From positions 1 to 25,394 of the forward strand of contig JBHLOY010000022.1 in NCBI GenBank assembly GCA_048939995.1: DNA of 25,394 nt, in the 5' to 3' direction. Positions 2,682 through 23,655 of the stretch are shown one piece after another (within the stretch, counting starts at the first letter, position 1; each line of letters starts with the position of its first letter). Made by a program: the position numbers and the translations under genes. The DNA is from Promethearchaeota archaeon. GTDB taxonomy: Archaea > Asgardarchaeota > Lokiarchaeia > Sigyniarchaeales > SOKP01. The notes beneath the pieces are model-generated. The model was not told where the DNA came from. It was given only the letters and a program-made list of their open reading frames with translations, and ran no database searches.

Positions 2682-4256
2682 TCACATATATGTAATTATT
2701 ACATTATACTTTTTTATATCTGATTCTACTTTTGCTTTTCCAAGTGGTGTTAATGTAATTATATCATTATTTCTTATTTTTAAAGCGGTTAATTTGATAT
2801 TAGGATCCTTCATTGAAGGTATATATGGATTCCAGTATATTTCTTTTGAAGTGGGATTAGTAATTATCCACAATATCGGTTCTAAGGAATGTCCAATTAT
2901 TCTAAGAGCCTTAAATATATATCCTATATCTGCATCAAAAGGAACAACAATCTTTATATTTTCTTCGCCTTCAATTTTGCCACAAGCCAAACAATCCTCT
3001 CTTTTGATAATATTAAGATGATCAAATTGGCCGTAAACCCCATTATAATTGACATAAGGAGGATCCATAGGGGCTCCGATATTTCTACCATGTAATCTAA
3101 ATATCATCTTTAAAGCTTCTTGGGATTGTATACTAGCTATAACTGAACTCACTGATTGAATTGCAGCAATTTTATTCCCCAAAATATTCTCCATTTCTTC
3201 AAATTTGAAATCTGGACCAAAAGTGTCTTTAATATTATTTTCCCATTCTTGAACTTCTTCAAAACTTAAGGATTTGAGTTTTTCCGGGGGTACATTTTCA
3301 TTAAATACACGGTGTCTTAATTTTTCGAGTTCTTCTTGTGCTATTTGTTTTAATTTTAATACATCTTCATCCATATTCATATCTGGTTTAAAACCATATT
3401 TTTTTTCAAAATCAACCTCAGCTTTAATAACACAATGATTTCTATTCCTTGGTAACCCCTTTAAAGTACAAGCAGCAATGAGCTTATCGTCAGCAGGTGG
3501 TATTGGAACAAGACATCTGTAACATGGAGTTATGTTCAATACATTTTCAGCATATTTTGCATCGAAATCCACCTCAACCTGTTTTCGAATTTGCTCTCTA
3601 ATAGGCTCAATTTTGTTTTGTTTGATTCTTTCAATATTCTGTTCTAATTCATCAATTTCTCTTAAAGCTTCTTTAAATTCTGGAGTGTCAAGCTCCCACA
3701 TTTTGCTTTCAACTAAATTCTCAATTTCAGTGGCTTTATCTTTGTATTCTATTCCTGAACCTTTAGGTATAATAATTTGAACATGCCCTTCAAAACCAAC
3801 TGTACCACCTTCAATAATAGGTATTTTCAACCTTAAACAAATTTTATTCAAATCCAATCTTGCATTAAAATTATCTAAAGCGGCAATCACTACTTCAGAT
3901 TCTTCAAATACCGACATAGGTAATTTTTGAAGTTTTTCAAAATAAAAGTCAACTTTTAAATAGGGATTCATTTCCTTTAGACGCTCAGCTGCTACTTCTG
4001 CCTTAGGACGACCCTCATCTCCAGGTTTGAATAACATTTGTCTTGATAAATTAGATGTTTCTATTGTATCTAAATCTACAAGTATTAATTTTCCAATACC
4101 CATTAGTGCAAAATCTTTTGCCACTTCACATCCAAGCGCACCAACTCCCACAATCATTAAACAAGCTTTCTCAAGAGTTGCTTGGTCCCATCCATCAATC
4201 AATTGCTGTCTTGCGTATATTCGAGATTTTAACACATCCTCTTTATTTTCCGTCAT
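2682..4256 (-). CDS. Ubiquitin-like protein activating enzyme E1 (ThiF family adenylation domain; Uba3/Uba2-like architecture)
   Basis: YARQ, GVGALG nucleotide-binding loop, DLDTIETSNLSRQ, KAE, ALDN..AR and GTVGFEG motifs. Zn pairs C245xxC248 and C422xxC425. Putative catalytic C263 in ACTLKGLPRNRNHC. GNKIAAIQSVSSVIA helix and a C-terminal ubiquitin-fold-like segment. Confidence 0.88.
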   Translation of the reverse strand: MTENKEDVLKSRIYARQQLIDGWDQATLEKACLMIVGVGALGCEVAKDFALMGIGKLILVDLDTIETSNLSRQMLFKPGDEGRPKAEVAAERLKEMNPYLKVDFYFEKLQKLPMSVFEESEVVIAALDNFNARLDLNKICLRLKIPIIEGGTVGFEGHVQIIIPKGSGIEYKDKATEIENLVESKMWELDTPEFKEALREIDELEQNIERIKQNKIEPIREQIRKQVEVDFDAKYAENVLNITPCYRCLVPIPPADDKLIAACTLKGLPRNRNHCVIKAEVDFEKKYGFKPDMNMDEDVLKLKQIAQEELEKLRHRVFNENVPPEKLKSLSFEEVQEWENNIKDTFGPDFKFEEMENILGNKIAAIQSVSSVIASIQSQEALKMIFRLHGRNIGAPMDPPYVNYNGVYGQFDHLNIIKREDCLACGKIEGEENIKIVVPFDADIGYIFKALRIIGHSLEPILWIITNPTSKEIYWNPYIPSMKDPNIKLTALKIRNNDIITLTPLGKAKVESDIKKYNVIITYM

Positions 4257-4430: not shown

Positions 4431-7400
4431 TCAATCTTTTTCCTTTTTAGATATATCCTTTAACATTTTTTTAATTTCGTCAGCCTTTTCTTTATCCTTC
4501 GCTTTTTGCATATCTTCTTTTTGCTTAGCGCTCTTTTCCTTAGATTTATTGATCTCCTCTATAAGCTCTTGTTTGAGTTTAATTAAATTTGCCATATCTT
4601 TGCTAAAAGATTTTGCTTCTTCTTTCAATTGGACTCTTTCTTCTCTTATTCTTTTTTTTAACTGTTTATCTTGTTTTTTAATTAGTTGAGAGACTTCACT
4701 TGTCATATCACTTACTTTATTTATAGTTTGTTGTATTTTATTTTCTTCTTCCAATAAACGAAGTTGTTCTGAGCGCTTTTTACTTGTCAAGTCTTCATAA
4801 ATTGCCTGCATTCTGACTTCATCTTGTTTTACTTTTTCTTGTAATTGTTTGGTATTTTCAATTTCTTTTTTAATAAATTTTGCTTGCTCCATCCAACCAA
4901 TTTCATTAAATTTAGAGGTCGCTCTTTCAAAAATAGAATATGCTCCTTCAAAATCATGATGAATTGCTAAACTTTTTCCTTCATCTATTAACTTTAAAGC
5001 ATCTTGTTTAATTTGATCAGTACGTTCTTTAAGTCGTAATAGCTGTCTCATCTTATTCTCTTGTACATTCTTTTTTCTTAAATAATCTTCACGTCTAGTT
5101 CTAATTTCCTCTTGAAATTTTTCATATTCTTTCTGACGGGCAAGTCGTCTCTGGACTTCTATTTTTTTCTTTTCAATAAACTGCTTTTTTTCTTGCTCTA
5201 AATCCTTAATTAAAACATCTATATTGTTAATTTCAGGTTCCCAACCAACATTTTCAGCTAATATTGCCCTAGCTTGCATATATAAAGAAATTGCTTGATC
5301 ATAATCGGGTTGTTTTCTTTTAAGATATGTGGCTCCTTTCTCTAAAAGATTATAAGCAGTTTCTCTATGACTTAGTTGTTCTTTAACTAATCTCTCCTTT
5401 TCCTTGATAGCAAGTTTTTGAGCAAATTCTTTTTCTCTTTCATATTTTCTCCTCTCTTCTATGAGTTCCCTTAGCTTCTTTTCCTCTTGAATTTTTTCTA
5501 ATTCTTTCTTTAGTTTTAATTGTTTCTCTTCCAAGTCCTTTTTCTTAAGCTCTTCAATTTTAATAGTCATTTGGGAGATAGAATTAGTAGGATAATGAAT
5601 TTTATTTAAAATTAACATAGCTTTTCTATAACTTTTAACCGAATTTTCATAATCTTTTACTTTAATAAATTTCTCGGCATCATCTAATATTTTAAAAGCT
5701 TCTTCTTTAATCCGCTTGGTTTCAACTTTTCCTTCTTCTAATTTCTGAACTTTAATTTCTCTTGCTTTTAATTTTTCTTTTTCTTTAAAAAGTTGTTCTA
5801 CTAATTTTTTATTAAATTCTTGCCGAGCTTTTTCATTTTGAATTTTTAATTCTAACTGCTTTTGTTTCTCTAATTCCTGTTCCCTTTTCTTCTCTCTCAC
5901 TTCTAATATCAGTTCCTTTAAGGAATCTGTAGGGAACTGGATTTCATTTAATATTAACTCAGCACTATGGTAAAATTCAATTGCTCTACCATACTGAGAC
6001 TTTTTCATAAAATTTTCTGCTTGTTCTAGAAGATCAAAAGCATCTGCTTTCCTCTTCTCAATATATCCTTTTACTCTTGCTTGTTTAATCAATTCAATTT
6101 GTTTTTGTCTCATTTGTTCAGTTTCAAATTTCATACTATCAGCAATTTTTTGTTGAAAGCGCTTCTGTTCTTCCTCCTTTTTAATTTGTTGTTCAATTTC
6201 AAACTGTTTTGCTAAATCTTTCTCTCTTTTCTTCTCCTGAATCTTTAAGATTAATTCTTTAATAGAATCAGTTGGAAATTGCAATTGATTTAAAACTATT
6301 TCTGCTTGATAATAAAGTTCAATAGCTTGTTCATAAAACCCCTGGCTTAATATGTTCTCTGCTTTATCCATTAAATTAAAAGCCTCGATTTTAATAGATT
6401 CCATTTGTTGCATTAAAACTTCTTTTTCTTTTATCTCAATACTTTTTGCTTTTAATCTGGCTCTTTCTTTCTCCATTTGTTCCATAAGTCGCATTTCAAA
6501 TTTTTTGTCAGATTCAATTTCTTTCCTTGTTGATTCTTTCTCTCTAAGTTCTCTTTTCTGTTTTTCTTCACTTCTGTTTTTTATTTCGCTAATAGTATCT
6601 TCGATTAATTTGATATAACCTCCTGTCCATCCAATATCTTCCAATAGATTTAAAGCTTGTTGGTAATTTATTAATGCATCGTTAAATTCTTCTCTTTTTA
6701 GATAAACATCAGCATTCTCAATCAATTTAAGAGCTTCTTCTTCTTTAGAGCGATTTTGAGCAGATAATTTCCTCCTCTTCTCAATTAATTCCTGATCTTT
6801 TAATCTTCGTCTATTCTCTATTTCTCGTTGACGCTTTAGTCTTTCAGTGAACTCCCGATTTTCCATTTCTTTTTTAATAGTGTCCTTTATCCTTTTTTGA
6901 TCAAAGATATCCTTCTCTTTCTTCTTCGATTCAATTTCGAGAATTGCATTATGTATGATTGGGATTTCATCTCTCCATTGAATTTGAGCAAAAACATTTG
7001 CAACCTTTCTATATGTGTCAATAGCATCATTAAACCTACCTAATGAGAGGTTGTTTTGTGCTTCTTCTATTAATCTAAATGCCTCTCTACGTTTATCTTC
7101 TCTATATTCAAATTCCTTTTCTTTTTCTCTTAACTTTAATTCTCTCTCTTTAAGATTCTCTTTTTGAGACTTTAGCTTCTCTATTATTGTAACTTGAAAA
7201 TTTCTTTCCTGTTTTTCCCTTTCTAATTTTTCTTGCAACTCTTTTTGCTTCTTTAGAAAAAATTCCCGTTTTTTATTTTCAATTTCGATGGTTGCATTAC
7301 CTATGAATTCTAATTCATCATACCACTGGATTTCAGCAAAAAGATTAGTTACATCATGGTAAATTTCAATAGCTTTATCAAAATTTGCTTTATTGATAAA

Positions 7401-9371
7401 CTCTTGAGCCTTATCTAGTAACTTAAAAGCATCTTCCTTTCTTTTCTGTCGATATTCTAACTCTTTTTCTTTTTCTCTTAATCTTATCTCATTTTTTTTC
7501 AATCTCTCCCTTTCTAAACTTAACTGGCTTGAAATTCTCTCCTGAAAATCCTGTTCTTCTTTTTGTCTTTCAATTTCATTCTGCATGTCTTTCTGTTTCT
7601 TATTCTCTAAATTTTTTTTCATTTGTTCTAAATCTTTAATTGATTCTTCGATTAAAGGTAATTCTTCATGCCATTGAATTCCAGCAAAAATATTACCGAC
7701 ATGTTGATATGCCAAAATTGCTTTATCAAATTCTCCCGTTTGGATATATTTTTGGGCATCATCTAATGCTTTAAATGCTGAATCCCTCCTATACTCGATG
7801 TACTCCGCCTTTTCCTGTTCTAACTGGATCCCAATTTCTTTTTCTTCTAGCTTTTTACGTTCTTTTTGTAAGATATCAGTAATCTGCTGTTGAAATTTAG
7901 ATTCTTCTTTTTGTTTCTCTTCCATTCGTTTCTGAGTTTCAAATTCTTTCTTATAATGGGCTTCTTTCAACTTCTTAACACTATTAATCGTAGTTTTGAT
8001 CATTGGTATATAAGATTCCCAACTTGGACCAAGATCAAAGAGTACTTCTAAAGCATTTTGATATTCTATTAGTGCTGAATCAAAATCATGTTGTTTTTGA
8101 AGAGAATTATCAGCTTTATCTAAAAAAGTGAAAAAATCAGCCTCTTTTGCCAATTGAATTTTCCTTTTTTGTTCATAATCTTTACGGCGAAGTTCTTCCT
8201 CTTTTGCAGACTGTATTATTTCCTCCCTTTTTTTAACATAAAACGTATCTTGAATCTTTCTAATCTCTTCTTCTCTTTTATTTTTCAGATCTTCCAAATT
8301 CTCTTCCATTTCCTGCTTTTCCCTTACATCCTTTATAAAATTCATAATAGGGAGGATATAGGAATCCCATTCAATTGATTTAAGAAGTTGGACTGCCTTT
8401 TGAAACTTTTCAATTGCTCTCTTGTAATCTTTTTCGCGCTCTAATTTCTTAGCGTATTCAATTAAATTAAAAGCTTCAATTTGGATTTCCTCTTCCGTTC
8501 TTTTTTTAAGTTCAAATTCAATAATTTTAGTACCATCAGCGTATATTTGAGAGTCATCATAAAGGTCTGAAGGTGGTATTTCACTTATTTGAGGTTCTAT
8601 CTTCAATCTTTCATACTTTTGTTTTTCATTTCTAAGTTTTTCAACAATAAATTGGAGATTTTGAGTCTGTTCTTTCCATCCAATTGAATTTAATAGCTGA
8701 ATTGCTTTTTCATAATTTTCAATCGCTTCATCGAACCTTCTCTCCTTCTCAAAGAATTTTGCATTATCAATAAAAGTAAATGCATCATTTTGGATACGTT
8801 TTTGTCTTGCCCTCTCCTGTCTATACTTTATAAGTTGTTCAGTTCTTTCAGCATTCTTCTTTTCACCGAATACATCCACCACCTGAGGACTCACCTCTAT
8901 ATCGGAAACACTCTGGCTGCTTTCACTTTTGATTGATTCTTGAATGTTTTGTTTATCAATTAAAGTAGTAACTTTCACTCTTAAATTTTGAATTTGCGTT
9001 TCAGACCAGCCGGCCTGTGTAAGTAATTTTATAGCAGAATTATATCTTTCAATTGCACCTTGAAAAAATCCGTCGGATTCTAATTTATTTGCCTTATCTA
9101 TTAAAACAAATGCTTGGTCCTGCAATTTTTCAATTTGAGTAGCTGCTTGTTTATGTTGGAACAACTTTTTTTCTTGTATAAACGATTTTAATCCTTCTAT
9201 TCTTTCATATAAGTCACTAACTCGATGCATCATATACCCGCTTTTTTTAAGGTAATCTGCAGCTATTTGATAATTTTCGATTGCTTCTTCATTATTTCCC
9301 TCTTCCTCAAATCTCTGAGCTCTTTCTAAATATTTAAGGGCTTCTTGAGCTAAATAATCATTATCTTGCAT
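4431..9371 (-). CDS. 1646-aa all-helical repeat protein: 14 MIT/TPR-like three-helix units separated by E/K/R/Q-rich long helices
   Basis: The motif AFxL(I/L)(D/E)xA-x(5-7)-(F/Y)xxA(I/L)xxY-x(10)-(G/Q)W or (F/Y)PT recurs 14 times. The ORF is uninterrupted for 4.9 kb and has no TM segment. Confidence 0.8.
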   Translation of the reverse strand: MQDNDYLAQEALKYLERAQRFEEEGNNEEAIENYQIAADYLKKSGYMMHRVSDLYERIEGLKSFIQEKKLFQHKQAATQIEKLQDQAFVLIDKANKLESDGFFQGAIERYNSAIKLLTQAGWSETQIQNLRVKVTTLIDKQNIQESIKSESSQSVSDIEVSPQVVDVFGEKKNAERTEQLIKYRQERARQKRIQNDAFTFIDNAKFFEKERRFDEAIENYEKAIQLLNSIGWKEQTQNLQFIVEKLRNEKQKYERLKIEPQISEIPPSDLYDDSQIYADGTKIIEFELKKRTEEEIQIEAFNLIEYAKKLEREKDYKRAIEKFQKAVQLLKSIEWDSYILPIMNFIKDVREKQEMEENLEDLKNKREEEIRKIQDTFYVKKREEIIQSAKEEELRRKDYEQKRKIQLAKEADFFTFLDKADNSLQKQHDFDSALIEYQNALEVLFDLGPSWESYIPMIKTTINSVKKLKEAHYKKEFETQKRMEEKQKEESKFQQQITDILQKERKKLEEKEIGIQLEQEKAEYIEYRRDSAFKALDDAQKYIQTGEFDKAILAYQHVGNIFAGIQWHEELPLIEESIKDLEQMKKNLENKKQKDMQNEIERQKEEQDFQERISSQLSLERERLKKNEIRLREKEKELEYRQKRKEDAFKLLDKAQEFINKANFDKAIEIYHDVTNLFAEIQWYDELEFIGNATIEIENKKREFFLKKQKELQEKLEREKQERNFQVTIIEKLKSQKENLKERELKLREKEKEFEYREDKRREAFRLIEEAQNNLSLGRFNDAIDTYRKVANVFAQIQWRDEIPIIHNAILEIESKKKEKDIFDQKRIKDTIKKEMENREFTERLKRQREIENRRRLKDQELIEKRRKLSAQNRSKEEEALKLIENADVYLKREEFNDALINYQQALNLLEDIGWTGGYIKLIEDTISEIKNRSEEKQKRELREKESTRKEIESDKKFEMRLMEQMEKERARLKAKSIEIKEKEVLMQQMESIKIEAFNLMDKAENILSQGFYEQAIELYYQAEIVLNQLQFPTDSIKELILKIQEKKREKDLAKQFEIEQQIKKEEEQKRFQQKIADSMKFETEQMRQKQIELIKQARVKGYIEKRKADAFDLLEQAENFMKKSQYGRAIEFYHSAELILNEIQFPTDSLKELILEVREKKREQELEKQKQLELKIQNEKARQEFNKKLVEQLFKEKEKLKAREIKVQKLEEGKVETKRIKEEAFKILDDAEKFIKVKDYENSVKSYRKAMLILNKIHYPTNSISQMTIKIEELKKKDLEEKQLKLKKELEKIQEEKKLRELIEERRKYEREKEFAQKLAIKEKERLVKEQLSHRETAYNLLEKGATYLKRKQPDYDQAISLYMQARAILAENVGWEPEINNIDVLIKDLEQEKKQFIEKKKIEVQRRLARQKEYEKFQEEIRTRREDYLRKKNVQENKMRQLLRLKERTDQIKQDALKLIDEGKSLAIHHDFEGAYSIFERATSKFNEIGWMEQAKFIKKEIENTKQLQEKVKQDEVRMQAIYEDLTSKKRSEQLRLLEEENKIQQTINKVSDMTSEVSQLIKKQDKQLKKRIREERVQLKEEAKSFSKDMANLIKLKQELIEEINKSKEKSAKQKEDMQKAKDKEKADEIKKMLKDISKKEKD
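4830..9345 (-). repeat. Intragenic protein-level tandem repeat, 14 units, period ~113-119 aa in the core
   Basis: First codons of the repeat-defining residue lie at about 9341, 9113, 8783, 8474, 8135, 7778, 7430, 7082, 6734, 6383, 6041, 5699, 5357 and 5000. Spacings are 76, 110, 103, 113, 119, 116, 116, 116, 117, 114, 114, 114 and 119 codons. Confidence 0.85.
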
Positions 9372-9555: not shown

Positions 9556-11511
9556 ATGGAAAATAATAAAATTGTAATGGATTTAGAACCAATTTCCAGG
9601 AGGCTCCATTGTTCAATAGAAAAATCTATTTATCAAATGATTATCGATTCGGGAATTCAAATTCGAACATTATGTGGAGGGAAAGGTACTTGTGGAAAAT
9701 GTAAACTCCAGATTCAAAAAGGACAAAGATTTTTTAATTCACCATCTCAAACAGAAATTGAAATTTTAAAAGATGGTTTGAAGGAAAACTGGAGATTAGC
9801 GTGTCAATTAAAAATTAATTCTGAAAAAATTGAATTGATAAATGAATTTAAATCTCCCCAATTTACAGTTTTCTTACCTGATGAGTTATTAATTGAAGAT
9901 TTTAAAATATTAACCTCTGGAATTACAAGAAAAATTAAACTTCATCCAAATATACAGAAAGTATATGTAAGGGTTGAAAGACCAACCCTTAATCGCCCTA
10001 TTCCATACTTAGAAAGAGTCTTTAAAGCCCTAAATAATTTACCCTTTATAATTAAGCTAAATGAAAAAAATATAGATTTAAATGCTTTGAAAACCCTTGA
10101 CCGCCTTATTAATGATGACTGTTATGATTTTACGATTACTTTTCTAAATAAATCCAAAATAATTCATTTTGAGCCTGGAGATAAAACTGAGGAGAATTTT
10201 GGAGTTGCTTTTGATATTGGAACAACTACAATAGTAGGTTACTTAATTAACCTTAAAGATGGAAAAACTTATGCTGTAGCATCAATGTTAAACCCCCAAA
10301 CTGCATATGGAGAGGACCTAATTACTAGAATAACATTTATTAAGGATCATAAAGAAGGACTGAAAAAGTTGAACTCAATTGTTATCGATGCACTAAATAA
10401 GTTAATAGATAAATTATGCTTTAAGGCAAAAATTTATCCAGCTCAAATATTTGAAATTACCATCGTCGGCAATTCTGTTATGCATCATATATTTCTTGGG
10501 TTAAATCCTAGAAGCATTGGAGTGAGTCCTTATGTTCCTGTACTCCAACAAGAGCTCAATTTAACTCCTTATGAATTAAATCTAAAGTCATTCCCTCAAG
10601 GTAATATTTACATTTTACCATTGATCGCAGGATTTGTCGGTGCCGATACAGTTGGCGTAATAGTATCTTCTGGAATTGATGAAGAAGCTGACTTAACATT
10701 GGCCCTAGATATTGGAACGAATGGCGAATTAGTTATAGGTAATAAAAACGTATTAATTACTGGTTCTTGTGCAGCTGGATCTGCTTTAGAAGGTGCTCAT
10801 ATCAAAGATGGAATGAGAGCGGCTGGTGGAGCAATAGACACAATAAAAATTAATCCTAAAACATTAGATGTGTCATTTACTACTATAAAAAACAAACAAC
10901 CTATTGGTATTTGTGGATCCGGTTTAATTGATGCTGTTGCAGAATTATTAAAATCTAAAATTTTAACCCGGAGTGGGAATTTTAATAAAGACTTTATTCA
11001 AAAAGATAGATTCCAAACCATAGAAGGTAAAATAGAATTTATAATTGCTTATAAAAATGAAACTTCAAACGGAAGAGAAATTACACTTTCTCAAAAAGAT
11101 ATCAGGGAAATACAGATGGCAAAAGCGGCATTTTTCTCAGGAACTAGAGTTATATTAGACTATCTCAGAACTAAGTATAAGAAAGAATGTGAAATATCAC
11201 AAATTTTTCTAGCAGGTGCTTTTGGTAATTATATTAATAAAGAAAATGCTAAATTTATCGGGATGATTCCTGATATTAGTTTGGATAAAATATATCAAAT
11301 AGGTAATGCAGCTGGGACTGGTGCAAAAAATTGTTTGATAAATAAAGCTTTAAGAACAAAAGCTCAGAATTTACTGAAAAATATAAATTATGTAGAAATA
11401 GCATTAGAAAAAAATTTCCAAAAAGAATATGCCGAAGCAATGTATTTTCCTCATATGAATTTGAATCTCTTTCCTAGTTTAGAAACTTATAAAAGCGTTC
11501 CTATAAGATAA
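9556..11511 (+). CDS. ATP-dependent reductive activator of corrinoid proteins (RACo/AcsV-like; ASKHA ATPase, DUF4445) with N-terminal [2Fe-2S] domain
   Basis: CGGKGTCGKC plus RLACQ (2Fe-2S domain). ASKHA motifs DIGTTT, NPQ..YGEDLITR, GFVGAD, DIGTNGE, CAAGSALEG, GICGSG, QxAKAA, LAGAFG and GNAAGTGA. Confidence 0.92.
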   Translation: MENNKIVMDLEPISRRLHCSIEKSIYQMIIDSGIQIRTLCGGKGTCGKCKLQIQKGQRFFNSPSQTEIEILKDGLKENWRLACQLKINSEKIELINEFKSPQFTVFLPDELLIEDFKILTSGITRKIKLHPNIQKVYVRVERPTLNRPIPYLERVFKALNNLPFIIKLNEKNIDLNALKTLDRLINDDCYDFTITFLNKSKIIHFEPGDKTEENFGVAFDIGTTTIVGYLINLKDGKTYAVASMLNPQTAYGEDLITRITFIKDHKEGLKKLNSIVIDALNKLIDKLCFKAKIYPAQIFEITIVGNSVMHHIFLGLNPRSIGVSPYVPVLQQELNLTPYELNLKSFPQGNIYILPLIAGFVGADTVGVIVSSGIDEEADLTLALDIGTNGELVIGNKNVLITGSCAAGSALEGAHIKDGMRAAGGAIDTIKINPKTLDVSFTTIKNKQPIGICGSGLIDAVAELLKSKILTRSGNFNKDFIQKDRFQTIEGKIEFIIAYKNETSNGREITLSQKDIREIQMAKAAFFSGTRVILDYLRTKYKKECEISQIFLAGAFGNYINKENAKFIGMIPDISLDKIYQIGNAAGTGAKNCLINKALRTKAQNLLKNINYVEIALEKNFQKEYAEAMYFPHMNLNLFPSLETYKSVPIR

Positions 11512-11780: not shown

Positions 11781-12308
11781 ATGTCAAGTTTTAAACTAAA
11801 AGTATTGCTTACTGGCGCTGCTGCTGTTGGAAAAACAAGTTTAGTGCAACGATTTATAAAAAACAGATTTGCTGCTAATTACAAGCTCACAGTAGGTGTT
11901 GATATTCTAACAAAGGATGTAGAGTTTAGGTCGGGAGAATTTGCTACACTCTCAATTTGGGATATTGGAGGTCAACAAAGGTTCGAATTTATTCGCAGTA
12001 CTTTTTACAAAGGAGCAGCTGGAGCTCTTTTAGTATTTGATCTAACTAGGGAACAGACATATACAGAAACTAGGAAATGGTTGACTGAAATACGCCAATT
12101 TGCTGGAGAGAACATTCCTTTTATTTTGATTGGGAATAAAGCAGATTTACTTGAAGATGTCGGAGTTGTAATTGATAAAAATGATGCAATGTCTTTTGCA
12201 GAGAAAGAAAAAAGTATCTATATTGAAACTTCGGCTAAGACTGGTGAAAATGTTGATGCTGCATTTACGGAATTAACAAGAAGGATTATTAATTCAAGAA
12301 CACAATAA
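11781..12308 (+). CDS. Rab-like Ras-superfamily small GTPase
   Basis: G1 GAAAVGKTS, G2 YKLTVG, G3 WDIGGQ, G4 GNKAD, G5 ETSAK. RabF-like motifs are present and there is no C-terminal Cys. Confidence 0.93.
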   Translation: MSSFKLKVLLTGAAAVGKTSLVQRFIKNRFAANYKLTVGVDILTKDVEFRSGEFATLSIWDIGGQQRFEFIRSTFYKGAAGALLVFDLTREQTYTETRKWLTEIRQFAGENIPFILIGNKADLLEDVGVVIDKNDAMSFAEKEKSIYIETSAKTGENVDAAFTELTRRIINSRTQ

Positions 12309-12349: not shown

Positions 12350-13765
12350 TTATTCATCTAAAAAATCCTCATATAAATCACGGTGAATAACATTAATAGC
12401 ATCAATAAGATAGCTTTTGTTTATTACTAGTGAAAAATTAAGATCATCAATACTTTGAGTTAGAGCTTTCACTTTAATGCGTTTCTTTTCCAAAGCCTGA
12501 AAAATTTTAACTTTTGTTAGGTTATCTAACACTTTAAAACCAGTGATATTAATTATTGCTACTTCTTCGCTTTTGATTTGAAAAAAATCTGAAAAGTACT
12601 CAGATTTTTTTAGAGCTATAAGTGCTTTTTCAGCATCTTGTTGTTTGACTATAAATGATGTGCTAATTTCTGATGCACTCTGAGCAACTAAGGAGACACT
12701 AATATTATTCTTACTCATGATTTTAAATATTTTAGCTAAAACACCGGGGACATCTACTAAACTCCCTGAAGTAATAGTGATTATTAATCCATCTTCAACT
12801 GCAGATATACCTTTTATATTATTTCTATCAGTAAATCCTGAAATTGTGGTAAAATTTACTTTTTCTAATGGTTTATCAAAATTCCTAATTTCTAATGGAA
12901 TATGGTTCTTTTCTATAGCTTCTAAACATTTTGGGTGCAAAACTTTTGCTCCGAAGTTCGCAATATGTTTTGCTTCTTCATAATCTAGATTTCGAATTAA
13001 GGATGCTTTTGGAACATAATTGGGTGCAATCGCGAGTAAACCATCAACATCTTTCCATAATATCACTTTAATATCTTGATCATGACCTATTTCGTAAATA
13101 GAATGAGCCAATATGGTTGCGGTATAATCTGAACCTCCTCTTCCTAGGGTTGTTGTATATCCGATTTTATTTCTTCCTATAAAACCAGTTATGCAAATAA
13201 TCGTATTTTTTTTAGGGTTCTCCAAAAAAGGTATTAGCATTTTCTCTACTCGTTTATTTGTTAAATTATAAAGTGGATAAGCGTTATTAAACTCATCATT
13301 GGTTATAATTACCTTATTTGCTGGAATAAAAATGGAATCAAATCCTCTATTTATAAGAAATTGATTCAATATATATGTTGAGATAATTTCTCCATAACTT
13401 AAGACAGAATCTTGATAATATGGTTCTAATCCAAATTCTCTAATATCTACAAAAATTTCTTCAAGTTCACTTAATTGATTATCAACCCATCCTTTTATAT
13501 TATAAAATTCATCAGAATCTTCTTTAAATACTTCCTCAATTATATCAAAATGCTTTTTTTCCATGATAGCCATGTTTTTGTCTAATTCTGTTTCGTTATT
13601 AACATTTTGAGCCATTTGCAGAAGTAGATTTGTAACACCATTAAATGCTGAAACAACATATACTCTTCCTACATTGTCATAAATCTCTGAAATTTTAAGG
13701 ATTTTGTGAAATGCGTTCTTATCACTTAAACAACTTCCTCCAAATTTCATGATTACAACTGTCAT
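12350..13765 (-). CDS. lysC: Aspartate kinase with C-terminal ACT domains
   Basis: MKFGGS, VVSA, SYGE, TTLGRGGSDYTA, WKDVDG and FGAKVLHP motifs. ACT domain VPGVLAKIFKIMSKNNISV..QSASE. Confidence 0.93.
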   Translation of the reverse strand: MTVVIMKFGGSCLSDKNAFHKILKISEIYDNVGRVYVVSAFNGVTNLLLQMAQNVNNETELDKNMAIMEKKHFDIIEEVFKEDSDEFYNIKGWVDNQLSELEEIFVDIREFGLEPYYQDSVLSYGEIISTYILNQFLINRGFDSIFIPANKVIITNDEFNNAYPLYNLTNKRVEKMLIPFLENPKKNTIICITGFIGRNKIGYTTTLGRGGSDYTATILAHSIYEIGHDQDIKVILWKDVDGLLAIAPNYVPKASLIRNLDYEEAKHIANFGAKVLHPKCLEAIEKNHIPLEIRNFDKPLEKVNFTTISGFTDRNNIKGISAVEDGLIITITSGSLVDVPGVLAKIFKIMSKNNISVSLVAQSASEISTSFIVKQQDAEKALIALKKSEYFSDFFQIKSEEVAIINITGFKVLDNLTKVKIFQALEKKRIKVKALTQSIDDLNFSLVINKSYLIDAINVIHRDLYEDFLDE

Positions 13766-13770
13766 ATCTT

Positions 13771-13776
13771 ACACCA
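13771..13776 (-). promoter_or_regulatory. Shine-Dalgarno-like motif (TGGTGT) of the aspartokinase
   Basis: Minus strand reads TGGTGT-AAGAT-ATG. GGTG matches the archaeal GGAGGTGA consensus. Confidence 0.55.
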
Positions 13777-13880
13777 TTAATTCAATGGATTTTAAAAGCT
13801 TATTTATCAATATGATATTTAAATAAATAAACTAATTTGAAAATAGTTTATCTAGAAATTATTATAAAAAAATGTTCTAA

Positions 13881-15734
13881 TTATTCAAAATCTTTAAGTA
13901 AATCTTCGATTTCTTTTATTTGATTATTAACATTTTCTTCAATTGTTATTAATCTTCTTTTCTTATCTTCAAGCTCTTTGGCAGTAATTTCTCCAGTTAA
14001 TTCTTTCATATCAAAATCTAATGACATTTTTGCAAGATAAGCTTTTTTGATTTTTAAGTCAATAAGTGATTTTTCTAAGCTTAACTTTTGGGGCACTTCA
14101 GTAGGAGCACTTTCTTTAGAAGCGGATAAAGTTTGTTCTGGAGGTATGGTTGGGGGAGATTGTTGGGTCGTAATCACTTTTATTGGTTCAGGTGGCTTTA
14201 TTGGTTCTATTGCTGATTCTAAAGGCATAACTGTTTTTGGCATCAATTTAGAAGGTGTTTCGATATTTTCACTTTTCACTTCTTGGTTAGTCACTTGAGC
14301 ATACGGAGAAATTTGCAATTTTTCCCTGGCACCTTTAGGCACCTCGCTAATTGACTTAGGTCTTTGCTTTACCATAAAATCTTCAGGATTTAGATTTAAA
14401 CCAATTTTTTTAGGGACAGAAGATTCTACTTCTTGAGGGATTGGAGGTGAAATTTCAGTTTGAAGATTTTCAGATATAGTTTTTTCTTTAATTACCTTAA
14501 TAGGTTTTTTAAGTGTTGAAGACTTAACTTTAAATGCTTGTAAAGGAATTTCTAGCTTTTTAAGAGCGATAGGTTTCCCCAGGTGTTGTTTAAATGCCTT
14601 AGAACCTTCAACTTCAGGACTATCTTCTACTGAAGGCGTTGAAGGCGCCACTGGAGTTTCAACACCCTGACTTGTTGGAGGCGATGCAGGTGAAATTTGT
14701 GGGAGCATACCTAAAATTTTTTGTGATTTTTCGAAAAACTCTTTTCCTAATGAATCGTCTCCTAATTCTATGCATAAATCACAAATTATTTCAAATAATT
14801 TCGCAGCTTTTTCAAATTCAGCATTCTCTAATGCCTTTGCTGCTTCTTCTATATATGTATCTCTTTTTAATAGGGGTTGCAATAAAGGAGATACTTCTGC
14901 ACTCATTTCTAAAATATCTGCAATGATTGTAATCATTTTGTCTCTATTTACAGGATCTTTTGCGATCATAGAGTAGGTTTTTAAACCTAAAATTTTTTCT
15001 ATTTGATCTGGTTTCATTGCTGTCTCTAAATCTTGTTTATTTCCAATTATAGCGGTATGTGCATGGGGGGCTTGTACTTTTATTAATTCGAGAAAAAATT
15101 TGCTCTTTTCTACGTTTTCCAAACTAGAATCTGTAATTAAAAGGACAGCATCACTCCCTTTAATAAAATTATTCCAAAGATAGCTAAACTGTTCTTGGCC
15201 AGCAAAATCCCAAAGATGGAAATGCAATTTGCCAATTTTGATTGTTGCAATATCACCTGTAATAGTTGGAATATGTTGCAAAGGAATTTCTTCTGCCCTA
15301 ATAAGCCTAGTTAAAGTAGTTTTACCGACTCCCGAAAAACCAACTAATGATATTTTTGGTCGTAAATTTTTATGTGTTACATCAATTGTGGGATCAAAAA
15401 TTTCAAAAGTTTTTTCATCATATTTATGCATTATTATGTCTTCAAATAAATTTAGAAATTCTTTTCTACATTTTATCAATTCCTTCTTGACATTTTCAAA
15501 ATTATCAGTAAGACCGGTAACAAAAAGAAATATTAACTGTAATTTTGGTTCGGTAATAAAAGAGATCCTATATTTATAATAATCGTGATAATCTACACTA
15601 TCGGTTCCTTTAGCAAAAGCTTCTTTTATTAAATCCGTAAATAATGCTTTAAAAACATCATCCTTCAATGCTTTTCCAAATTGCCTATAATATAATAAAT
15701 CGTTAGCCTTATAGATATAAACCTGCCTTAAAAT
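13881..15734 (-). CDS. Longin-like domain + Arf-like small GTPase + helical (MIT/TPR-like) hairpin + Pro-rich linker + C-terminal coiled coil
   Basis: G1 GFSGVGKTT, G2 IPTITG, G3 WDFAGQ, G4 GNKQD. The N-terminal region has a longin-like pattern. The frame is open 22 codons upstream of the track's TTG (15668) to ATT at 15734, giving (M)LRQVYIYKANDLLYYRQFGKA and 617 aa in total. Confidence 0.82.
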   Translation of the reverse strand: MLRQVYIYKANDLLYYRQFGKALKDDVFKALFTDLIKEAFAKGTDSVDYHDYYKYRISFITEPKLQLIFLFVTGLTDNFENVKKELIKCRKEFLNLFEDIIMHKYDEKTFEIFDPTIDVTHKNLRPKISLVGFSGVGKTTLTRLIRAEEIPLQHIPTITGDIATIKIGKLHFHLWDFAGQEQFSYLWNNFIKGSDAVLLITDSSLENVEKSKFFLELIKVQAPHAHTAIIGNKQDLETAMKPDQIEKILGLKTYSMIAKDPVNRDKMITIIADILEMSAEVSPLLQPLLKRDTYIEEAAKALENAEFEKAAKLFEIICDLCIELGDDSLGKEFFEKSQKILGMLPQISPASPPTSQGVETPVAPSTPSVEDSPEVEGSKAFKQHLGKPIALKKLEIPLQAFKVKSSTLKKPIKVIKEKTISENLQTEISPPIPQEVESSVPKKIGLNLNPEDFMVKQRPKSISEVPKGAREKLQISPYAQVTNQEVKSENIETPSKLMPKTVMPLESAIEPIKPPEPIKVITTQQSPPTIPPEQTLSASKESAPTEVPQKLSLEKSLIDLKIKKAYLAKMSLDFDMKELTGEITAKELEDKKRRLITIEENVNNQIKEIEDLLKDFE

Positions 15735-15740
15735 TTAGAT

Positions 15741-15747
15741 TCACCAC
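15741..15747 (-). promoter_or_regulatory. Shine-Dalgarno motif GTGGTGA for the longin-GTPase
   Basis: Minus strand reads GTGGTGA-ATCTAA-ATT TTA AGG CAG, a 6-nt spacing to the ATT. It lies in the 24-nt gap after the roadblock gene. Confidence 0.65.
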
Positions 15748-15758
15748 AAAATTATCAT

Positions 15759-16250
15759 TTAACTCGAAATATATTTCACGAGATCTTTTATAATTGAATA
15801 TTTTTTATTCTTAGATTTTTCTTGTTGAATAACATCTTCGACTTTGTTGATCTCTTTTGAAAAATCAAAGATTGAAAATTCATTAATCTCCTGCCCTTTG
15901 GAAGTCTCTCCAAGTTTTTTTAAAAATACACTGATACTTGGCATAAATTTAGCTAAATTGACATCTAAATTTAGTTTTGAAATTAAAATTAAATTATTAT
16001 TAAATGTAAATAAATAATTATAATCTTGAGCCTCTATGGCAAATGAGTTAATTCTTTTTAAATTTAAGTCTTTAGCGATATGCTGAGAGTTGGCAATTAG
16101 GGAAAGAATTTTTTGAGGAATAACTTTCCCCTTAGAAAATTCTTTAATAGCAGAGCTAAGAATTATTCCATATTTATTCGCGATTGCGCATTCTGAATTT
16201 AATTCTGCTTTCAATTGTGAGATGATATTATCGTAATTTATTTCTCTCAT
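15759..16250 (-). CDS. Roadblock/LC7 (MglB/LAMTOR-like) domain protein with C-terminal helical extension
   Basis: Helix, then AIANKYGIILSS (beta hairpin with conserved G), helix, LKRINSFAIEAQDYNYLF, LILISKL, and VNLAKF..helix: the roadblock secondary-structure pattern. Directly upstream of a small GTPase. Confidence 0.7.
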   Translation of the reverse strand: MREINYDNIISQLKAELNSECAIANKYGIILSSAIKEFSKGKVIPQKILSLIANSQHIAKDLNLKRINSFAIEAQDYNYLFTFNNNLILISKLNLDVNLAKFMPSISVFLKKLGETSKGQEINEFSIFDFSKEINKVEDVIQQEKSKNKKYSIIKDLVKYISS

Positions 16251-16358: not shown

Positions 16359-17144
16359 ATGCAAATATATAAATTTCATTTTATTGAAAAACAATCAAAT
16401 ATAACAATTATTTCAGAATCCAAACATGCCATTTTAAGAGCAAAAAAAGAATTTTATTATCAAAGGCAGCTTTTAGAGGACTATATATCTCATCATAAAG
16501 AATTTCTAACTTCTTTTTCTCCTGTAAGAGTTCAAACTGAATATGAGGTGGTTAATTTAATGGCCCAAGGGGCATTTTTATGTGATGTAGGTCCAATGGC
16601 AACTGTAGCGGGAGCTTTTGCAGATATAATGCTTAAAATAATGAAATCTTATATTTCTGAATTTAATATAGCAAAAATCGCATTGATTGAAAACGGTGGA
16701 GAAGTAGCAAATGATTCAGAGAAAACCATGAAAGTTGCTCTATTTGCTGGAAATAACCAGTTAAGCATAAAAATTGGGTTTTTGCTTAAAAAAGAAGATT
16801 CTCCAATTGGTATTGCAACTAGTTCTGCTACTATAGGACATGCAATTAGTTTAGGTGAAGCAGATGCTGTAACCATTTTTGCTAATACTACTACTATTGC
16901 TGATGGAGCATCAACTAGAGTTTGTAATCTTGTCAAAGGACTTGATATTGAAAAGTCTATTAAGAGAGCATTGGATACTGTTGATGACATGGAGGGTGTA
17001 AAAGGCGCTTTTATAAGTCGCCAGAATATGGTAGGTCTTACAGGAAAAATCCCCGAGATTTTTAGGTTAAATGAAGAGAATGGCTTAGAATTAAAGAAGA
17101 AGTTGGAATATCAATTTCCTGAGAATTTTGAGATTATTAAATAA
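16359..17144 (+). CDS. UPF0280 / ApbE-like family protein
   Basis: VGPMATVAGA, ENGGE, GIATSSATIGHAISLGEADAVT and ADGAST motifs. Overlaps the convergent gene by 8 nt. Confidence 0.88.
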   Translation: MQIYKFHFIEKQSNITIISESKHAILRAKKEFYYQRQLLEDYISHHKEFLTSFSPVRVQTEYEVVNLMAQGAFLCDVGPMATVAGAFADIMLKIMKSYISEFNIAKIALIENGGEVANDSEKTMKVALFAGNNQLSIKIGFLLKKEDSPIGIATSSATIGHAISLGEADAVTIFANTTTIADGASTRVCNLVKGLDIEKSIKRALDTVDDMEGVKGAFISRQNMVGLTGKIPEIFRLNEENGLELKKKLEYQFPENFEIIK

Positions 17145-19395
17145 CCCAATAATATGGAAATATTATGCCACTCTCACTTTTAGAGGAGCAAATTTTATTT
17201 AAATAATTCATATTGTAATATGCTTCCATTTCTTCTGCTGTTAATCTCTCATAGACATCAAATCCACTAAAAGCTAAATAATTATCATCTAAAATTAGAT
17301 AAATATTTGTGTTTAGAGATTGCTTCATTTGCTGTAATTTATTCGTACCATTTGCATAAAAATGGTCACTCGGTTTAAAATAACCTTTTGGTTCTTGTAT
17401 AAAATCTAGAAGGTCTCTCACTAAAAGACTTTTATTTTGAGCATCAAAAGGATATTTATAATACATAACAACATAAGGGATTCCAAATTCACAAATCAAA
17501 AAATTTCTATCATCAGTAAAATTTGAATACCATTGAAGTGAATATACTTCTCTTCGATGTAAGCTATATTCTTGATCATCAATATCCAGCAGTTGGTCAG
17601 AGAATTGGGCAATAAACATGAAAATAATCACACTAAGAATGAAAACTTTAATCCTAAGTTTAGATATGGATTTTAACTTAAACAACTTATATAAATAAGA
17701 TATAAATCCAAAAATTACCACTGGTGAGAATAATAAAAGTATTCTTCCAGACCAATATTGATGTAGTACAAAAATGTCTAATGAAAAAGCTCCTAAATAA
17801 ATAATTGTCAAACCAAGAAACCATAGAGCTAATGGTTTTCCTCGGGGAACTTTCTGAAAAGTGATTAAACCCCAGATTCCGAAATAGAAAAGAACAGTAC
17901 TATCAATTAGTATTAAAATTTTTGAAAAGTTTACATTCCAACTTTCTATATTAAAGATTATAAAAATAATGACCATTATACTAATTACAGCAAAAAGAAC
18001 TGGAAAAGCTAATTTATCTTCTGCTATTTTATAATATCTATATTTTTGACCCGTAATTATTGATTTGAACTGATTTTTCTCAAATCTAATTCCAGTTCGT
18101 AGTTTTAAAATTAAAAATAATCCTAAAATCCCTGCAAATACCAATAAAAACCAAGGTAATGCTAGAATGTCAACTATCTTCCAATGGGCACTTATTTCGC
18201 TAAAATTAAATAAAGCTAGAAATATGCCCAAGCAGATACATAGAATTAAAAAATCAAAACCCCTCTTATAACTTCTTGCAAAATAGATTAAAAAAATAAA
18301 TGTAAATGATACAATAAAAATGGTAGCTATAAGGGAATGAGTAAATAATGCACTAATAAATATTAAGATAATTAAACTATATGATAGGATAAGATTTGTT
18401 AAAATATCTTTTCTAGTAGGTTTGTCTTCTTTTATGAAGTTTTCTAGCCTTAAATATAGTATAAATAAAATATGTAGAGATTGAATAGTTGCTAAAGAAG
18501 TTGGCCAAAATTGATACATCATATTACTAAAACCTAATGAGGTAAATTCTAAAATAAAAACTCCAAAAATAGCCAAATTTCGGCTTTTAAAAATTCTTTT
18601 TAAAAGATTGTAAATTATTAGTCCAGAAGCTAAAAAAGTATAAAATGAAAAGAATTTTGCTATTATTAAATGGTCTATACCCGTAAAAAAGTAAATAATT
18701 GCAGTAAAAAGATGTAAACCTAAAGCTCCAAAGTATTGTTCCACTGGTAAATAATTGAGAGAACTGATCATCTTACTCATAAAAACATGGTACATTGCAT
18801 CAGTTCCATAGAAATAACTAAATCTGACTCCATGAAGAATGGAAAGTAATATCAGAAAACATATAACTAACAAACTAACTAATGGAATCCTTTTCTTAAT
18901 GTAATTCAGTAAGGAAAAGTTTTGTTTATTAGTAGTTTTCTTTTCTGATTTCAGAAATAAATTTAGATTCTTTCTTTTTTCGATAAAAATAATATAAATG
19001 ATTAAAACAAAGTAAGCAATAGTTATAATAACTATAAAAAATGAGCCCGTGATGGGAATACCCAGTAAATTTCCTAAATATCCTAATAAAATATAGAAAG
19101 TTAAATTACTTATAATAGTTAAACTAGCTTTTTCTAAAAAGCTAAAACCCTTTTCTTTCAAAATGATATAATATAGAGGATAAAAAGGTAAAAAAAGTAA
19201 TATTACAGCGGTACTTATTAACAATATTATTCCAAAAAGAAATTCTAAAACGCTATTTTGTAATTGAAAATTTACCTGGAAAAAAACGAATAATAAAGCT
19301 AAGGCTGATATGATAAACATCACAATCTGCTTTCTATGGTATAAAGAAAATAATAAGGTGTTAAATTTTTCTTTCATAGATGAAGAATTTCTCAT
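17137..19395 (-). CDS. Polytopic membrane protein, probable GT-C-fold glycosyltransferase-like
   Basis: Many hydrophobic helices and an N-terminal DUF1616-like LFLP..LEK motif. External loop GTDAMYH (D-x-x-YH as in GT-C first loops). C-terminal soluble domain EVYSLQWYSNFT..LICEFG. Sits next to NDP-sugar genes. Confidence 0.55.
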   Translation of the reverse strand: MRNSSSMKEKFNTLLFSLYHRKQIVMFIISALALLFVFFQVNFQLQNSVLEFLFGIILLISTAVILLFLPFYPLYYIILKEKGFSFLEKASLTIISNLTFYILLGYLGNLLGIPITGSFFIVIITIAYFVLIIYIIFIEKRKNLNLFLKSEKKTTNKQNFSLLNYIKKRIPLVSLLVICFLILLSILHGVRFSYFYGTDAMYHVFMSKMISSLNYLPVEQYFGALGLHLFTAIIYFFTGIDHLIIAKFFSFYTFLASGLIIYNLLKRIFKSRNLAIFGVFILEFTSLGFSNMMYQFWPTSLATIQSLHILFILYLRLENFIKEDKPTRKDILTNLILSYSLIILIFISALFTHSLIATIFIVSFTFIFLIYFARSYKRGFDFLILCICLGIFLALFNFSEISAHWKIVDILALPWFLLVFAGILGLFLILKLRTGIRFEKNQFKSIITGQKYRYYKIAEDKLAFPVLFAVISIMVIIFIIFNIESWNVNFSKILILIDSTVLFYFGIWGLITFQKVPRGKPLALWFLGLTIIYLGAFSLDIFVLHQYWSGRILLLFSPVVIFGFISYLYKLFKLKSISKLRIKVFILSVIIFMFIAQFSDQLLDIDDQEYSLHRREVYSLQWYSNFTDDRNFLICEFGIPYVVMYYKYPFDAQNKSLLVRDLLDFIQEPKGYFKPSDHFYANGTNKLQQMKQSLNTNIYLILDDNYLAFSGFDVYERLTAEEMEAYYNMNYLNKICSSKSESGIIFPYYWVI

Positions 19396-19558: not shown

Positions 19559-20539
19559 ATGTTAAAAAATAAAACAATTCTTATTACTGGAGCTGCTGGT
19601 TTTATTGGATCTCATTTAACTGAAATTTTACTTAAGAACAAAAACTTTCTAATTTTGATCGATAATTTCAATGATTATTATCAAGGAAAGGAAGAAAGAT
19701 TAGCAGCTATACTAAATAATTACAAATTCACTAAGGATTACATACTTTTAAAAAAGGATCTTTTAGATTCATCGGTTTTTAATCAAGTTGATAAGCATAT
19801 TGATGTAATGTATCATTTAGCAGCTCAAGCAGGTGTGAGGTATTCTACTAAACATCCCATTAAAGTCGCACATAATAATATCATTAGTACAGTTAATCTA
19901 TTTGAATTTTCTCGCCAACTTGATGAAATTAGTAAAATTGTATATGCCTCATCATCATCAGTATATGGGAATCCAATTTACACTCCCTGTGATGAAAATC
20001 ATCCGAAAGTTCCGATATCTGCTTATGCTATATCTAAATTAACTGGTGAAGTATATGCTGACTTTTATTATCGTGAATTTAACTTGCCAATTACTTCTTT
20101 AAGATTTTATACTGTATATGGACCAAGAGGAAGACCGGATATGGCTATATATAAGTTCTTTGAGTTAATGTATCAAAATAAAGAAATACCGATTTATGGA
20201 GATGGAGAACAAGTTAGGGATTTTACTTATATTTCCGATATCGTTGATGGTATGATTTTAGCTGGTGAAAAAGATGAGTCTATAGGGGAGATATTCAATT
20301 TAGGATGCTCAAATCCCTTAAAAGTAAATGATTTAGTTGATAAAATGTATAAAATAACAAATAAACCTAAAAGAATAAAATACTTACCAAAACAGAAAGG
20401 TGATGTTGATTTGACTCATTCAGATATAACTAAAGCGAAGAAAATGTTAAATTTCAAACCCAAAATAGATATAGAAGAAGGCTTAAGATTACAACACCAA
20501 TGGCAATTAAAAAATTTTGAGAAATCAACAAAAATTTAA
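19559..20539 (+). CDS. NAD-dependent epimerase/dehydratase, UDP-glucuronate 4-epimerase-like (extended SDR)
   Basis: TGAAGFIG, HLAAQAGVRYS, ASSSSVYG, YAISK, RFYTVYGPRGRPDMA and RDFTY motifs. Confidence 0.88.
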   Translation: MLKNKTILITGAAGFIGSHLTEILLKNKNFLILIDNFNDYYQGKEERLAAILNNYKFTKDYILLKKDLLDSSVFNQVDKHIDVMYHLAAQAGVRYSTKHPIKVAHNNIISTVNLFEFSRQLDEISKIVYASSSSVYGNPIYTPCDENHPKVPISAYAISKLTGEVYADFYYREFNLPITSLRFYTVYGPRGRPDMAIYKFFELMYQNKEIPIYGDGEQVRDFTYISDIVDGMILAGEKDESIGEIFNLGCSNPLKVNDLVDKMYKITNKPKRIKYLPKQKGDVDLTHSDITKAKKMLNFKPKIDIEEGLRLQHQWQLKNFEKSTKI

Positions 20540-20732
20540 AAAGAAGATTAAAGAATTACTCCTATATTTTAAAATATCTAGTTTTATACTAAATAAAAAG
20601 CAAATTCATCCCTAATCTATGGGATCTTGGAAAAATTAACCACTAGAATAAATTTTTATTAAATTAATACCAATTATATTATTATACTAAACTTTTAATC
20701 ATACTAGAAATTTTTCGATCTGGGCTTTTATT

Positions 20733-21599: not shown

Positions 21600-21664
21600 G
21601 ATCTCATAATTACCATTTTAATATATTCATAAAATTTTTGATAGGTTAATCCTATTATACTCCT

Positions 21665-22735: not shown

Positions 22736-22738
22736 TTG

Positions 22739-23626: not shown

Positions 23627-23655
23627 TTTAACTTTCACTCCATATTAGGTTAAGA

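Follow-up and report, generated by a model that had tools for sequence, protein, structure and literature searches.

A 14-module protein of Loki-type archaea, predicted to form a helical rod with conserved ends and a middle that varies by whole units

We found that a 1646-residue protein, encoded in the 25,394-nucleotide stretch of Promethearchaeota DNA analysed here (the window), is real and conserved in Loki-type Asgard archaea. It is predicted to form a helical rod of about 0.14 micrometre that carries 14 three-helix knobs. Comparison with its relatives shows computationally that evolution alters the length of the rod by whole units only, in the middle, and that both ends stay. We read the protein, at a probability of roughly 0.6, as a stiff, periodic, length-setting scaffold or tether whose ends would bind and whose connector helices would pack in register on a partner chain. 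The window has a GC content of about 29%, and a Pfam scan places Rab-like and Arf/Rag-like GTPases and an E1-like enzyme among its genes. The features used below are as follows.

4431..9371, minus strand: rod protein gene (P0001), 1646 residues, 14 three-helix modules, no transmembrane segment (ORF, module HMM, hydropathy, 120 homologues)
8607..9353, minus strand: head, modules 1–3, residues 7–255, the most MIT-like part (spacing, linker composition, Pfam)
4833..8486, minus strand: rod, modules 4–14, residues 296–1513, with predicted proline-free connector helices (AlphaFold, register, charge)
5712..7442, minus strand: middle block, units 7–11, residues 644–1220, duplicated or lost between species (unit mapping)
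4449..4892, minus strand: tail, a single predicted helix of 148 residues after module 14 (AlphaFold)
4434..4508, minus strand: conserved C-terminal amphipathic basic helix with a DEIKKML core (conservation, hydrophobic moment)
11781..12308, plus strand: Rab-like small GTPase, 175 residues, G motifs intact, no C-terminal Cys (Pfam, locus comparison)
9556..11511, plus strand: RACo (ASKHA corrinoid activator), divergent neighbour (Pfam, locus comparison)
2682..4256, minus strand: E1/ThiF-like gene, 174 bp downstream of the rod gene (Pfam, locus comparison)

Glutamate and lysine together account for 31% of the protein. Its highest 19-residue hydropathy value is 0.69, and since it contains no hydrophobic stretch, we read it from its composition as soluble and cytoplasmic. 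Most named homologues belong to Promethearchaeota (Lokiarchaeota) assemblies. An assembly artefact does not explain the array, because the DNA-level repeats inside the gene are old, with 61–90% identity over 26–57 nt.

Modules, spacing and connector helices

A module HMM built on ten seeds, with leave-one-out seed scores of 27–60 bits, finds 14 copies in the protein at 24–79 bits each, against a best score of 6.0 bits in 200 shuffles of the same protein. The copies are anchored at residues 11, 87, 197, 300, 413, 532, 648, 764, 880, 997, 1111, 1225, 1339, and 1458, giving spacings of 76, 110, 103, 113, 119, 116, 116, 116, 117, 114, 114, 114, and 119 residues. This agrees with the 14 modules of the original prediction, and the two peptides quoted there lie at residues 10–62 and 647–683. 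The period of 113–119 residues proposed at the same time holds from module 4 onward and fails for the first three spacings. The strict pattern A-x6-A-x11-A-x3-Y occurs in ten of the 14 modules. Across 59 homologues, the rod linkers consist to 60% of E/K/Q/R, bearing out their predicted E/K/R/Q-rich character, and contain 0.0% proline; head linkers 2–3 and 3–4 contain 3.6% proline and vary in length. Within the head, modules 1 and 2 keep a fixed spacing of 76 residues, and the proline-containing, length-variable linkers lie beyond them.

AlphaFold models of stretches of the protein (alignments of 118–119 rows, pLDDT 87, pTM 0.37 and 0.43) build each knob from three pieces: the last part of one long helix, a return helix of 17–18 residues, and the first part of the next long helix. 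In these models a connector runs from helix 3 into the next helix 1 as one unbroken helix of 90–93 residues (90, 93, and 93), and about 56 of the 116 residues of a unit lie in the bundle and about 60 in bare connector helix. AlphaFold tends to draw E/K-rich stretches as long helices and the pTM is low, so that the global shape is uncertain. The hydrophobic register of the connectors, aligned on the next module, has its best shift at 0 for nine connectors (units 5–13), and the differences between periods of 114, 116, 117, and 119 residues are located in the bundle loops, not in the connectors. Connector hydrophobics form a sparse conserved 4-4-7-7-7 stripe with additional off-face positions and no clean 3.5 peak, and conserved hydrophobic residues are not confined to a single face. 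The linkers are enriched in charge pairs at i+3 (z 5.5) and i+4 (z 3.2). This salt-bridge pattern and the absence of proline would suit a single α-helix spacer, an E/K/R-rich helix with few hydrophobics, but large hydrophobics at conserved positions make up about 23% of their residues, more than a free single α-helix usually has.

The net charge averages about −4 in the bundles and about +3.5 in the connectors. A charge wave runs through the protein at the unit period (p 0.0075), and 82% of units combine an acidic bundle with a basic connector. Covariation over 1300–1660 pooled units, both raw and corrected for unit class, gave a helical i+3/i+4 signal and a few intra-bundle pairs; bundle–connector pairs reached z 3.5–5.5 and were not stable between settings. 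A homodimer prediction for residues 483–860 with an alignment scored 0.00, which carries no weight either way. The C-terminal helix, within the last 25 residues, has a hydrophobic moment of 0.79, the highest in the tail.

Kinship of the three-helix modules

The whole protein scores 76.7 bits against Pfam MIT (PF04212, cut-off 30), a value reached by summing modules. Singly, modules 1–4 score 24–28 bits (E 2e-6 to 3e-5), all below the 30-bit cut-off, module 10 scores weakly at 17 bits, and modules 6, 7, 8, 13, and 14 gave no Pfam MIT match. Among 63 module-1 homologues, 61 match MIT, 32 match SNAP, and at most nine match any single TPR family. A module-1 profile reaches the MIT domains of calpain-7 (E 2.6e-6), VPS4A (3.4e-5), and archaeal CdvC as well as MITD1; its alignments span two or three helices of MIT domains and mostly no more than one hairpin of TPR proteins. 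Module 1 keeps two residues typical of MIT domains, an acid in the first helix and an Arg in the third. Modules 1–4 are MIT-like in sequence. The MIT identity originally proposed for the modules is thus supported in part: its sequence signal is clear for the first four, weak for module 10, and absent from modules 6, 7, 8, 13, and 14.

In the AlphaFold models the modules are antiparallel three-helix bundles of about 60–70 residues that superpose on 2w2u, 5lb7, and 4a5x at 1.6–2.7 Å. For module 8, MIT comes first among the compact matches (Z 9.2–9.8; CdvC MIT 2w2u, Z 9.8, 1.6 Å over 63 residues; katanin 5lb7, Z 9.7, 2.0 Å over 67), with TPR-like chains tied. For module 14, the TPR/SNAP triplets score slightly higher (RapI, Z 11.1; Sec17, 10.7; CdvC MIT, 9.6). 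Z values of 9–11 are ordinary for helical bundles and are not specific to MIT. By these models the rod modules cannot be told from TPR/SNAP triplets, and a fair filing is an MIT-like head with rod knobs of MIT/TPR type. Each of the rod modules tested has its own conserved surface.

The known families share parts of this design. MIT proteins (PF04212: Vps4/CdvC, katanin p60, MITD1, NRBF2, USP8, calpain-7, and ULK3) have the three-helix bundle and the A-x6-A-x11-A-x3-Y pattern in common with the rod modules, but have one or two MIT domains next to an enzyme or adaptor, whereas the rod family has 9–25 bundles and no catalytic domain. Unlike those of MIT proteins, the rod bundles are predicted to have first and third helices that extend into connectors of 90 residues, and the MIT score has been lost from most of the rod modules tested. 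Helices 1–2 of a module resemble one TPR hairpin, and three consecutive TPR/SNAP helices match the bundle (Z 9–11), but the rod lacks the 34-residue period and the hairpin stacking of those solenoids; a hairpin with its capping helix stands alone on the rod. A TPR solenoid was rejected, as the spacing is 76–119 residues, not 34, and AlphaFold draws isolated, unstacked bundles on unbroken helices, in line with the bundles that the original prediction had preferred to a stacked solenoid.

Spectrin, dystrophin, and nesprin are chains of three-helix bundles in which a helix continues between repeats and length follows repeat number, and the rod likewise chains its bundles through a continuing helix, with length given by the number of units. 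Spectrin repeats (about 106 residues), however, are bundle throughout, whereas half of the rod unit is bare helix. A spectrin repeat was also rejected (bundle about 56 of 116 residues, middle helix of 17 residues, no Pfam spectrin match at E 0.1), and the earlier notion of a spectrin-like rod falls on the roughly 60 residues of bare connector in each unit. An ESM Atlas bacterial cluster (320 residues, 71 members) has a predicted bundle–helix–bundle (TM 0.59 over 209 residues, feature score 0.85); it is short, uncharacterised, and a predicted model only, and its resemblance to the rod is one of predicted shape. Bundle–helix–bundle-like shapes are predicted for bacterial ESM Atlas clusters of 320, 371, and 263 residues (TM 0.35–0.59).

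A Foldseek search against the PDB returned nothing at E 0.001 or better, and an NCBIfam scan of the protein returned nothing. We found no description of the rod design in the open literature, searched also with the accessions of the cultured homologues; subscription journals lay outside this coverage. The protein has no end-to-end match to any named family, as the original prediction had supposed. Neither the knob fold nor the long helical rod is new in itself. Joined to each other, with a connector that does not vary and a length that changes in blocks, they turned up in none of the family libraries, structures, and open papers searched.

Length change and distribution among relatives

The homologue set comprises 120 proteins at 37–74% identity. 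Nearly all of them keep the rod spacings of 113, 119/118, 116, 116, 116, 117, 114, 114, 114, and 119 residues, down to 37–50% identity. Their length classes have 14, 18, 19, and 20 modules, and wider searches add forms with 9, 10, 12, 15, 17, and 25, for an overall range of 9–25. Units 1–2, 4–6, and 11–14 are retained in nearly all forms tested, and units 7–11 are copied or dropped as blocks. Module number changed at least eight times on a midpoint-rooted tree of selected rows, built from the C-terminal three modules and the tail. Fixed ends with a copied or lost middle are the pattern of a spacer with working ends, and the fixed spacing and whole-unit length changes sustain the elongated scaffold or ruler of the original prediction.

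The unit profile is present in 130 of the 131 genomes of the order (family f1, 117 of 118, including the source genome; f2, 11 of 11; f4, 2 of 2) and in none of seven genomes from other orders of the same class, and a three-module profile had no match in about 225 other Asgard genomes searched. The unit family is also present in the cultured MK-D1. Among 1.84 billion representatives, 251 proteins match at 1e-10 or better. The long-period matches form several paralogous subfamilies, the named ones all from Promethearchaeota or Sigynarchaeota, and 116 is the dominant period among their proline-free connectors (298 of 582). The idea that paralogue periods differ by whole helical turns was dropped, as there was no clear 3.6-residue phase. 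In sister families the homologous rods are shorter and less regular, which counts against a spacer or tether: that of Promethearchaeum syntrophicum MK-D1 (DSAG12_01966) has 985 residues and seven modules spaced 108–124 residues apart, and shorter, less regular homologues occur in Ca. Harpocratesius repetitus (MCF2141197) and in a closed 6.04-Mb relative genome.

Several further relatives were observed. The homologue at locus L005 (G019:C15) is frameshifted near residue 365, by assembly error or as a pseudogene. The source genome has two paralogues on contig C11, one of about 1700 residues (363818–369011) that is split by a 100-N assembly gap, with periods of 116, 122, and 129 near its C-terminus and an Arg-rich tail, and one of 444 residues with three modules (12804–14138). 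A long paralogue with 127- and 116-period units and up to 2910 residues occurs at L128, L130, and L142 and in the source genome (C11:360222–369011). In families f1 and f2, including MK-D1, its gene lies head-to-head with that of a UPF0182-like membrane protein of about 1000 residues, which by this arrangement is a possible membrane partner. In family f4 (L132:1876–8628, L135, and L136) two rod paralogues lie on the same strand with an uncharacterised 326-residue gene between them, preceded at L132 and L135 by a longin-like gene; this clustering hints that the paralogues may act together. A separate group with a period of 57 (P0210, P0237, P0247, P0252, P0266, and P0272) has 14–22 similar three-helix modules and no connector; several members have signal-peptide-like N-termini, and one is named Bacteroidales.

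Gene neighbourhood and proposed function

The GTPase at 11781–12308 is, among the roughly 60 small GTPases of the source genome, the best match, at 66% identity, to the GTPases encoded next to the homologue in two closed f2 genomes. The Rab orthologue is divergent to the rod gene and lies within 4 kb of it in 59 of 61 f1 loci, at 0.4–5.1 kb in all seven decidable f2 genomes, and at 5 kb in one f4 genome, counts in which related loci are kin and not independent; the link is missing in one genome each of f3 and f4. A roadblock-plus-longin protein of 270–300 residues, whose predicted shape is like folliculin/C9orf72 (TM 0.46–0.50), is encoded next to the rod gene or close to it in some members of each of the four families and is absent from most f1 loci. 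Its gene is head-to-head with the rod gene in several f2 genomes, in f3, and at two f1 loci, and lies a few kilobases upstream on the same strand in f4. As a rough synteny baseline from the examined loci, three of 22 opposite-strand pairs are linked across families, all of them with rod genes. RACo, a metabolic gene and probably a passenger, accompanies the cluster in f1 and in one genus of f2. Because RACo stays in the cluster and the Rab orthologue is unlinked in two genomes, the Rab linkage may be inertia. In MK-D1, GTPase genes as a rule do not share operons with the genes of their regulators (PMC10933270). We take the linked GTPase as a lead, a possible partner of the rod.

The E1-like gene, whose link is less steady than that of the Rab orthologue, is adjacent and co-oriented in 51 of 77 loci. 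A fixed operon with the rod gene was rejected, as a convergent subtilase lies between them in 24 of the 77 loci and the orientation differs in f3. Its 524-residue product, in which long charged helical insertions split the ThiF domain, is 76–88% identical among close relatives and 54% in f3. Elsewhere in the window, a 595-residue Arf/Rag-like GTPase with extra domains (13881–16250, minus strand) recurs in 37 of 87 related loci and is preceded by a 163-residue gene that has no Pfam match and is roadblock-like by eye. A 752-residue ORF (17137–19395, minus strand), whose N-terminus includes a hydrophobic segment and which matches nothing in Pfam or NCBIfam, adjoins a sugar-nucleotide and glycosyltransferase cluster (19559–25056).

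As a spacer or tether, the protein would set a distance with its middle and bind with its ends. At 0.15 nm per residue, minus overlap, each unit would span about 11 nm, giving about 135 nm for rod and tail here, about 80 nm for a 9-module form, and about 250 nm for a 25-module form. The bare connectors, with their sparse hydrophobic stripe and net positive charge, may pack on a partner chain, in register or with a half-unit stagger that brings them against the acidic knobs; candidates for this chain are another copy of the protein, a filament, or a paralogue that shares the 116 period. The MIT-like head, on its loose linkers, would capture a helical ligand. At the other end, the conserved amphipathic and basic C-terminus may anchor on a membrane or in an MIT-like groove. 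The most likely candidate for a regulator, though a tentative one drawn from gene order, is the linked Rab-like GTPase with its roadblock–longin neighbour.

Golgin/EEA1-type tethers are long helical rods with conserved ends, a C-terminal anchor, N-terminal capture, and Rab association (PMC4707255, PMC2582897). The rod as predicted is likewise long and helical, with fixed ends and with candidates for a C-terminal anchor and an N-terminal capture region. Golgins, however, are continuous dimeric coiled coils without periodic bundles, no sequence relation between them and the rod was found, and the Rab link is known here from the gene neighbourhood alone. It also counts against a tether that Loki GTPases lack lipid anchors and that cultured Lokis have almost no internal membranes (PMC10933270).

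The competing readings overlap with that of a spacer or tether. A possible though doubtful one is a self-assembling cytoskeletal fibre, likened to intermediate filaments or myosin rods, in which the protein, alone or with paralogues, would associate side by side with a half-unit stagger that puts the acidic knobs over the basic connectors, or else head to tail with the C-terminal helix in a head module. The charge alternation, the connector hydrophobics on more than one face, the 116 period common to paralogues (two of them in one f4 gene cluster), and the tail-helix pattern I-x-x-M-L-x-x-I, which resembles that of a MIM1 helix, argue for such a fibre, but no charge compensation is seen within orthologous units (mean r −0.05) and the ORF lengths of paralogues do not track the module number of the rod protein. 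It is unlikely that the knobs are MIT domains that bind MIM tails and so space or bundle Loki ESCRT-III polymers, as the original prediction had suggested, or, in a weaker form, that only head modules 1–4 do so; none of the results supports ESCRT-III binding as such. The Pfam matches of modules 1–4, the MIT domains found by the module-1 profile, and the MIT-like acid and Arg of module 1 fit this idea, and the source genome encodes Vps4 and two Snf7 proteins with Leu-rich tails, of the kind that Asgard Vps4 MIT binds (PMC7240154). Yet these genes lie on other contigs (C13 and C11), none of the nearest neighbours of 87 rod loci is an ESCRT gene, the MIT signal is lost in most rod modules tested, each with its own conserved surface, and ESCRT-III is Asgard-wide whereas the rod is found in one order only.

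An actin subunit rises 5.5 nm along one strand, so that a unit of about 11 nm would equal two subunits (2 × 5.5 nm) of a polymer such as Lokiactin, along which the protein might lie as a ruler in the manner of nebulin or tropomyosin. Four actin-family genes in the source genome, and the actin filaments that run through Loki protrusions (PMC9834061), accord with this numerical fit. The rise, however, is an estimate from predicted helix lengths, good to perhaps 1 nm, no actin-binding motif was seen in the rod and no linkage to actin genes, and the sole tubulin-family match in the source genome is a single 379-codon gene; we consider such a ruler very unlikely. Little probability also attaches to a degenerate adaptor of the TPR/SNAP-like kind, with a repeat number that drifts through slippage, no ruler role, and a spacing kept only because indels break the helix. 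TPR/SNAP triplets do fit module 14 as well as or slightly better than MIT, and module number varies nearly threefold among related genera. But an isolated helix should tolerate indels of 3–4 or 7 residues, which are very rare in the rod across the 120 homologues, long-diverged paralogues keep the same 116 period, and the connectors keep conserved hydrophobic positions.

New here are the constant connector register, the fixed ends with a variable middle, the period shared among paralogues, the charge wave, and the GTPase/longin neighbourhood. No rod was detected beyond a single order, so the family sheds little direct light on the ancestor of eukaryotes. On a broader and rather speculative view, Loki-type archaea would possess a multi-gene family, peculiar to them, of rigid modular rods built on one 116-residue lattice, co-assembling into tethers or spacers of species-specific length (80–250 nm) under the control of a Rab-like GTPase. 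Long protrusions and necks are seen in cultured Lokis, with few of their structural proteins identified so far, and near-universal, order-specific rods of a predicted 80–250 nm, with fixed ends and a quantised middle, are a concrete candidate for setting such distances. The MK-D1 homologue DSAG12_01966 makes localisation and pull-down possible in a cultured organism. Asgard genomes encode dozens of Rab-like GTPases without known effectors, and their role is stated as unknown (PMC10933270). If the broader view is true, the rod family would be an archaeal counterpart of golgin-type tethers and a first effector class for Asgard small GTPases.
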